A DNA stretch of 9,022 bases from sequence record KM389297.1. The stretch is one strand, 5' to 3'. This DNA is from Escherichia phage CBA6. The notes below the pieces were generated by a model. The model was not told the DNA's origin, did no database searches, and saw nothing but the letters and a program-made list of their open reading frames with translations. The position numbers and the translations under genes are program-made. How positions within the stretch are numbered: position 1 is the first letter of the stretch; each line of letters begins with the position of its first letter. Positions 2,476 through 2,499 of the stretch are shown piece after piece.

Positions 2476-2499
2476 CTCAATAGCAAAAGGCAGTATAAT
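2472..2499 (+). promoter_or_regulatory. Sigma70-like early promoter candidate for gene 32 (-35 TTAACT, 16-nt spacer, -10 TATAAT)
   Basis: TATAAT at 2494-2499; TTAACT at 2472-2477. Contains the motif AAAAGGCAGTATA (2485-2497), which recurs at 6530-6542 upstream of another gene. Confidence 0.4.

Follow-up and report, generated by a model that had tools for sequence, protein, structure and literature searches.

A 13-nucleotide sequence shared by two predicted sigma-70-type promoters of a Kuttervirus phage

Does a short sequence that recurs at two phage promoters form a regulatory element in its own right, or does it arise from what such promoters have in common? The question is raised by AAAAGGCAGTATA, a 13-mer that overlaps the -10 element upstream of gene 32 (site 1) and again that upstream of a gene for a 319-aa protein (site 2) in the window, by which we mean the whole 9,022-nt stretch of phage DNA that was analysed. 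Along its whole length the window shares 98.9% identity with Escherichia phage ECML-4 (NC_025446, 11856-20889) and with Salmonella phage Vi01, and by this similarity the source phage is, as they are, a Kuttervirus of the family Ackermannviridae. The annotated gene order in ECML-4 runs from the late co-activator gp33 through a 79-aa gene, the single-stranded DNA-binding protein of gene 32, an opposite-strand tail-tube-family gene, gp2 and two small genes to the 319-aa hypothetical protein, a P-loop gene and thymidylate synthase. Gene 32 occupies positions 2571-3608 of the window (+ strand; 345 aa; Pfam PF08804 (gp32), E 5.9e-66; PHROG 224). The 319-aa gene (6612-7571, + strand) is of unknown function, with PHROG 3905 as its sole match, and heads a nucleotide-metabolism cluster consisting of a kinase-like gene, a thymidylate-synthase-like gene and a dNMP kinase. 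Around both sites, gene order is unchanged in every genus examined.

The two copies of the 13-mer lie at 2485-2497 and 6530-6542, both exact and both on the + strand, as the preliminary description had placed them; its observation that each overlaps a -10 element at 16-nt spacing from a -35 is likewise borne out by a consensus scan at both loci. Copy 1 consists of the last 9 nt of the spacer (AAAAGGCAG) and the first 4 nt of the -10, and copy 2 of the same spacer sequence followed by TATA. The flanks differ between copies, c/t preceding and A/T following the 13-mer, which gives AAAAGGCAGTATAWT as the 15-mer. When the 175 nt around each site are locally aligned, only the 13-mer (with ATTA, across one gap) and GGTT.AC of the -35 region align. 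Homology between the loci thus ends at the 13-mer and the -35 core, which rules out a duplicated cassette or any larger duplication. By inspection, AAAAGGCAGTATA has neither dyad nor direct-repeat symmetry when compared with its reverse complement TATACTGCCTTTT, nor self-complementarity. A reading of the motif as the start region of a small gene was also rejected on inspection, as AAGG...ATG at 6546 opens an ORF of just six codons.

Both loci have the geometry of host-type promoters. Upstream of gene 32, a -35-like hexamer TTAACT (2472-2477, + strand; 4/6 consensus) overlaps the stop codon of the 79-aa gene and is followed by a -10 hexamer TATAAT (2494-2499, + strand), with transcription predicted to start at about G2506. 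Upstream of the 319-aa gene, the corresponding elements are TTTACA (6517-6522, + strand; 5/6 consensus) and TATATT (6539-6544, + strand), with a predicted start at about 6551. In the consensus scan, TTAACT-16-TATAAT (2472-2499) and TTTACA-16-TATATT (6517-6544), each scoring 10/12, are the top two of 30 promoter-like sites in the window, against a background of 16 in shuffles. Only seven fully intergenic sites reach 10/12 in the whole ECML-4 genome. Site 2 is among them; site 1, with an equal score, is absent because its -35 overlaps the upstream stop codon. The two promoters are non-coding and co-oriented with the genes they precede, lying in intergenic gaps of 95 nt (gene 32) and 173 nt (319-aa gene), with 77 and 73 nt, respectively, between the start of the -10 hexamer and the ATG. 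Both sites therefore combine a -35-like hexamer, a -10 at a 16-bp spacer and a non-coding location before a co-oriented gene, the features by which we assign them to the sigma-70, T4-early-like type. In ECML-4, nine intergenic sites are built alike, from TTTAC(T/A) or TTAAC and TATAnT at a spacing of 16-17 bp, with mid-spacers rich in A (TCTTC[A/T]A[A/T]AA) and, in most, a G directly before the -10.

The intergenic regions were compared across Kuttervirus (CBA120 and IMG/VR genomes), Agtrevirus (Ag3), Limestonevirus (JA15, LIMEstone1), Taipeivirus (FKP10), Miltonvirus (KNP4) and Nezavisimistyvirus (Bue1), together with Yersinia phage YEP3 and Salmonella phage CRW-SP2, to which no genus is assigned. 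A scan of IMG/VR with a loose site-2 pattern returned mostly chance matches, and Ackermannviridae contigs alone were used. The -35 core, the -10 and the spacing between them (15-18 bp) are held in 8-9 phages of at least seven Ackermannviridae lineages, in genera that share just 65-75% DNA identity, while spacers and flanks diverge. Because the hexamers are kept while their surroundings change, both promoters are strongly footprinted. Thus the proposal in the preliminary description that plausible -35/-10 promoters exist at both loci gains support from geometry and hexamer conservation alike, and the two look like real, ordinary host-type phage promoters of the known sigma-70 kind.

The 13-mer itself behaves differently at the two sites. 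In the gene 32 alignment of nine phages, the GGT of the -35 region (window 2470-2472) and TATAA.TA of the -10 are invariant, and GGTTAA is found in eight of the nine; the 12 nt between the invariant blocks are unrelated from genus to genus. At site 1, the nine bases upstream of TATA give way to unrelated sequence, between a retained -35 and -10, in Agtrevirus, Limestonevirus, Taipeivirus, Miltonvirus and Nezavisimistyvirus. Within Kuttervirus, the site-1 spacer reads AAAAGGCAG in the window and four genomes, AAAACGCAG in seven including CBA120, and AAACGCAG in one, a variation that amounts to a G/C polymorphism and a 1-nt deletion and leaves -35 and -10 intact. At site 2, the invariant positions among nine phages comprise TTTAC, TATA.T, some of the AT-rich block upstream and a single A in the spacer's A-tract, and spacers elsewhere read AAAATGCAGTATA in Ag3 and YEP3, AAAATGTAGTATA in JA15 and AAACTACAGTATA in FKP10. 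The part of the 13-mer outside TATA is conserved at site 2 only. Judging from these alignments, the 13-mer is largely ancestral at site 2, and a recent and variable state at site 1.

Several known systems resemble these promoters. The early consensus of T4/PST, TTTACW-N17-TAYWAT (PMC4122927), is close to the pattern of the nine ECML-4 sites, and T4 early promoters share sequence beyond the hexamers, with extra conserved positions in the 'uber' UP/-35/TGn/-10 type (PMC2988021). The window sites are like T4 early promoters in their -35 (TTTACA/TTAACT) and -10 (TATATT/TATAAT), in the AT-rich DNA upstream of site 2, in preceding prereplicative genes and in their sharing of sequence beyond the hexamers. 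They differ in a spacer of 16 rather than 17 bp and in having C-A-G at -15 to -13 instead of the TGn of an extended -10; moreover, their start sites are predicted, and Alt, ModA, MotA and AsiA are reported absent from ViI-like phages (PMC3184105). In T4 middle promoters, a MotA box with the consensus (a/t)(a/t)(a/t)TGCTTtA precedes the -10 by 12 +/- 1 bp (PMC2988021), and T4 gene 32 is prereplicative; at the window sites, TGCTT is absent at the required distance, where the -30 regions read CTCAATAGC and CATCTTCTA. The closest precedent is the promoter before ORF047 of Dickeya phage LIMEstone1 (HE600015; PMC3296691), the direct orthologue of site 2, before the same gene and with the same GTTTAC -35, which is already annotated as a 'putative early promoter'. 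That annotation, made in silico, gives the -10 as TATTAT, which overlaps our TATATT at an offset of 2 nt. LIMEstone1 differs in having AAAATGTAGTATA and a 15-nt spacer, and in leaving the gene 32 promoter unannotated; indeed, none of the GenBank records examined annotates a promoter for gene 32. The searchable literature yielded neither mapped transcription starts nor expression data for a member of the Ackermannviridae. For CBA120, Kutter et al. 2011 (PMC3184105) described only eight sigma-70-like promoters, of unclear role, and were unable to identify early promoters; Anany et al. report much the same for Ag3 (PMC3121705).

Hairpins around the -10 boxes may help to account for the composition of the 13-mer. 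Outside Kuttervirus, an inverted repeat holds the -10 of the gene 32 promoter in its loop and reads CGGGG-TATAATTA-CCCCG in Ag3, JA15 and YEP3; the enclosing repeats are GCGGGGG...CTCCCGC in FKP10, GCGGG...CCGC in KNP4 and GGCGGGA...TCCCGC in Bue1. The site-1 layout in other genera is an (A/T)-rich stretch followed by CGGGG or GCGGG, TATAAT, TA and CCCCG. This inverted repeat is, on comparison of the sequences, decayed in Kuttervirus. At site 1, Bue1 AAAGGCGGGATATAAT and AAAGGCAGTATAAT of the window are a few changes apart, and the GGCAG of site 1 looks like the worn remnant of an ancestral G-rich hairpin arm. At site 2, an imperfect hairpin of GGCAGT(ATA)TTAATGTTC, a 13-nt loop and GAACATTAA-ACTGCC is predicted at 6534-6579 (+ strand; -16.2 kcal/mol, z -2.1). 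Its 5' arm holds the GGCAGT of the 13-mer and the -10, with GGCAGT pairing with ACTGCC at 6574-6579. Site-2 hairpins enclosing the -10 also occur in Ag3, CRW-SP2 and Bue1, and not in FKP10 or KNP4. Taken one by one, sequences from four lineages fold well. Because the consensus fold reaches only -2.26 kcal/mol with one compensatory pair, a weak covariation signal, a conserved hairpin over the site-2 -10 is suggestive at most. Also at site 2, AATTGAAC (the reverse of TTCAAT) occurs downstream of the -10 (window 6545-6579) in Kuttervirus, KNP4 and Bue1, and in Bue1 this -10 lies between the arms of a perfect 10-bp inverted repeat, TTCAATAGAG/CTCTATTGAA.

Promoters linked to hairpins recall the PeSL terminator/promoter cassettes of T4-like phages (PMC2839356, PMC4122927), in which early-type promoters are tightly linked to stem-loops. 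ECML-4 offers PeSL-like arrangements, as terminator hairpins adjoin several of its TTTACT promoters and further -10 boxes fall within terminator loops. Unlike PeSL cassettes, however, sites 1 and 2 sit in a syntenic core without indels, and the Ackermannviridae hairpin often encloses the -10 instead of preceding the -35. No strong stem-loop abuts the -35 at either window site, and neither qualifies as a PeSL cassette.

How unusual is the repeat? Exactly one 13-mer is directly repeated in the window; sequences of equal size simulated with a first-order Markov model average 1.0 such repeats, and 49% of them have at least one. With about one expected by chance, the bare repeat of a 13-mer in a 9-kb window is therefore unremarkable. 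Its placement is a different matter. When ECML-4 intergenic promoters are aligned on their -10 hexamers and the columns are shuffled, a shared run of at least 13 nt ending at TATA has P = 0.0009 with 9 promoters and P = 0.0037 with 25, in a test that is post hoc. The in-register placement of the 13-mer at two promoters moderately exceeds chance by this post hoc measure. As class composition would yield such in-register identity only rarely (P 0.001-0.004), a reading of the 13-mer as coincidence is not fully comfortable.

Genome-wide recurrence was assessed in ECML-4 (157,308 bp), a motif search that the preliminary description had named among the ways to check its proposal. Matches that are exact or have one mismatch are confined to the orthologues of sites 1 and 2 (14340 and 18385), with about 0.07 such matches expected. 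Allowing up to two mismatches yields six, of which five are intergenic. For the most part, the additional matches are terminator tails in reverse complement (AAAAGGCGG... = ...CCGCCTTTT) or hairpins carrying a -10-like hexamer. The search thus spares the proposal in one respect, in that the 13-mer is not scattered in coding DNA, the outcome that the preliminary description had said would refute it, and fails it in another, in that there is no recurrence beyond the two sites. A genome-wide class motif is accordingly rejected, with only two sites at one mismatch or fewer and matches at two or three mismatches being mostly reverse-complemented terminator tails. A third match within the window (two mismatches or fewer; 1489-1501, minus strand) corresponds to a small hairpin and T-run in reverse complement, and was rejected as a promoter, having no acceptable -10 or -35 on the minus strand and no gene downstream.

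We consider it probable that the loci are two independent sigma-70-type, T4-early-like promoters, and that the 13-mer combines the -10, spacer features typical of the class and a short, coincidental G/C patch. On this reading, sigma-70 holoenzyme of E. coli or Salmonella would recognise the T4-early-like -35 (TTAACT/TTTACA), the 16-bp spacer and the -10 (TATAAT/TATATT), and would initiate transcription about 7 nt past the -10. We infer promoter activity that is prereplicative, whether early or middle, with one promoter driving gene 32 and the other the 319-aa gene at the head of the nucleotide-metabolism cluster. Within the 13-mer, AAAA would represent the A-tract of the class, the last G the G that is common at -13, and TATA would be imposed by the -10, leaving only GGCA free. 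At site 2, GGCA would belong to the 5' arm of the hairpin, and at site 1 it would be a degenerate remnant of the G-rich arm. We read the layout of the 13-mer as A-tract, G-rich hairpin-arm remnant and TATA, which is usual in Ackermannviridae promoter/hairpin elements. If so, its few free positions agree by coincidence within one lineage, or at most through a very short patch of conversion, and the 13-mer is no separate regulatory element. What is gained for Kuttervirus phages, which are applied in biocontrol of Salmonella and E. coli O157, is in silico positions for the gene 32 promoter and for the promoter of the nucleotide-metabolism cluster; the 13-mer itself matters little. As a point against the sigma-70 reading, the virion DNA of these phages carries hypermodified thymidines (PMC5889632), which may affect recognition of the -10.

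A broader possibility, which we hold only tentatively, is that both sites belong to a promoter grammar found across the Ackermannviridae, in which a box, TTCAATA(A/G), is read by a candidate phage factor. Among k-mers enriched in the upstream regions of ECML-4, the late-promoter-like CTAAATA(C) ranks highest, and TTCAATAA is observed 21 times against 2.7 expected. The motif of the latter, TTCAATA(A/G), has 44 copies genome-wide, 25 of them intergenic against 4.8 expected (about 5-fold). Distances from the box to the next -10-like hexamer peak at 6 nt, inside the spacers of the TTTACT class, and at 11-13 nt, the latter with nine intergenic cases against 0.29 expected (P about 3e-11). In many of the 11-13-nt cases, the -10 lies in a GC hairpin or terminator loop, 32-43 nt from the start codon. 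This spacing has the geometry of a MotA box, although the sequence differs from it and no MotA or AsiA homologues are reported. At site 2, TTCAATAA is found at 6502-6509 (+ strand), in an AT-rich, UP-like region 7 bp upstream of the -35 hexamer and 29 bp from the -10, and at gene 32 a related CTCAATAG lies 10 bp from the -10. A third promoter-like element in the window (7587-7625, + strand) consists of TTCAATAG (7587-7594), N13 and TATAAT (7608-7613), its -10 falling within the loop of a terminator hairpin (7597-7625). The element is kept in five other phages: Ag3, where it is annotated as minus_10_signal, JA15, FKP10, YEP3 and Bue1.

Such a grammar may place the box in three positions: 11-13 bp upstream of a sigma-70 -10, inside TTTACT spacers, and as an inverted pair flanking the -35. 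It may equally include -10s that often lie in loops of GC hairpins or terminators, with gene 32 carrying the variant CTCAATAG and site 2 a box upstream of the -35. If true, it would supply the 'missing' early and middle promoters of phages that lack MotA and AsiA. TTTACT-16/17-TATAnT, TTCAATA(A/G)-N12-TATAAT and -10 boxes in hairpin loops offer concrete candidates for the early promoters missing in PMC3184105. The literature searched yielded nothing relevant on TTCAATA(A/G) or TTCAATAA. The truly recurrent motif in these genomes is TTCAATA(A/G) about 12 bp upstream of -10 hexamers, which we offer as a lead and not as a result. The 'putative middle promoter' annotated in LIMEstone1 was considered as a TTCAATA-N12 site and set aside, being a TTTACT-type site called on a CTT core.

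Individual -10s associated with TTCAATA(A/G) in ECML-4 include those at 19463, 31078, 58969(-), 61780(-), 66192(-), 79945(-) and 139159. The distant Erwinia phage Bue1 shares the arrangement at 7034, 30067(-), 35739(-) and 41973(-). Inverted pairs of the form TTATTGAA-N13-TTCAATAA flank the -35. Separately, -10-like hexamers (TATAAT/TATTAT) occur repeatedly in the loops of GC-rich hairpins, many of which are intrinsic terminators. Cases include window 7597-7625, the gene 32 promoters of other phages, and 44726(-), 58969(-), 61780(-), 66192(-), 124336, 127200 and 139159 in ECML-4. Elements of this kind would be composite terminator/promoters, in which transcription would restart within the descending arm.

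Returning to the 13-mer, an unlikely alternative to two independent promoters is that a short, functionless patch of gene conversion or recombination was exchanged between them in the Kuttervirus lineage, in the manner of PeSL exchange. Such a transfer would fit a site-2 version that is ancestral (AAAATGCAGTATA in Ag3 and YEP3) beside a site-1 spacer that is different in all other genera, and recombination between conserved promoter cassettes has been proposed for T4-like phages (PMC4122927, PMC2839356). The patch would, however, span only 13 nt with flanks that lack homology, and site 1 can be derived from a Bue1-like AAAGGCGGG arm by a few substitutions. There is also no trace of shuffling, because synteny around both sites is unchanged in all genera.

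We regard as improbable the idea that AAAAGGCAG(TATA) is a Kuttervirus-specific operator, bound over the -10-proximal spacer by a protein of the phage or its host that would control gene 32 and the 319-aa operon together, for instance by repressing both after the early phase. Its appeal lies in an in-register identity above the expectation from class composition, in the intergenic position of both copies with the 13-mer absent from coding DNA, and in two downstream genes that are plausibly prereplicative. An operator would nonetheless have two sites only in 157 kb, would show neither dyad nor direct-repeat symmetry, and would be missing at the orthologous gene 32 promoters of other genera. Its central G is C in the larger Kuttervirus group sampled, one genome carries a 1-nt deletion at site 1, and genome-wide matches with up to two mismatches are mostly reverse complements of terminator tails. 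The suggestion in the preliminary description that the 13-mer may mark a promoter class or a factor-binding site is not supported, given the same scarcity of sites, variable site-1 spacer and want of symmetry. Least credible of all is a pure chance repeat in non-promoter sequence, for although about one repeated 13-mer is expected per 9-kb window and consensus scans yield many false positives (30 against 16 in shuffles), the copies coincide, in one and the same register, with the two top-scoring promoter matches, and their hexamers are invariant across genera of 65-75% DNA identity.

Downstream of the predicted gene 32 start, a 5'-UTR hairpin, GCCC-GAAG-GGGC (2539-2550, + strand), lies upstream of the Shine-Dalgarno sequence. 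It forms part of an element, AATAGCCC-GAAG-GGGCGG (2535-2552), whose AATAGCC...GGCGG motif is present in eight of nine Ackermannviridae phages and is duplicated in KNP4 and Bue1. This element may be an analogue of the translational operator of T4 gene 32, or an mRNA stabiliser. No known RNA family (Rfam) was matched in the window at E <= 1, the gene 32 5'-UTR hairpin included.

Elsewhere in the window, the sequence at 1483-1508, GGCAGATATACTGCTTTTCGCC, lies just past a RuvC-like gene and contains a small hairpin (GCAG/CTGC), a TATACT -10-like hexamer and a T-run. It is a third arrangement of GGCAG and TATA within 5 kb, and its reverse complement matches the 13-mer with two mismatches. At 7644-8294, the counterpart of ECML-4 gp029 (220 aa, with the P-loop GSNGSGKS, annotated as 'terminase small subunit') has a 12-nt in-frame deletion, and a CGA-to-TGA change creates a premature stop (7716-7718) after 28 codons. 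The window copy is either a pseudogene or restart variant, or the product of sequencing error. Late-promoter-like sequences occur at 4615-4622 on the minus strand (TATAAATA), where the sequence precedes the minus-strand tail-tube-family gene in the intergenic region between this gene and the divergent gp2, and at 828-837 on the + strand (CTAAATACCC), upstream of the RuvC-like gene.
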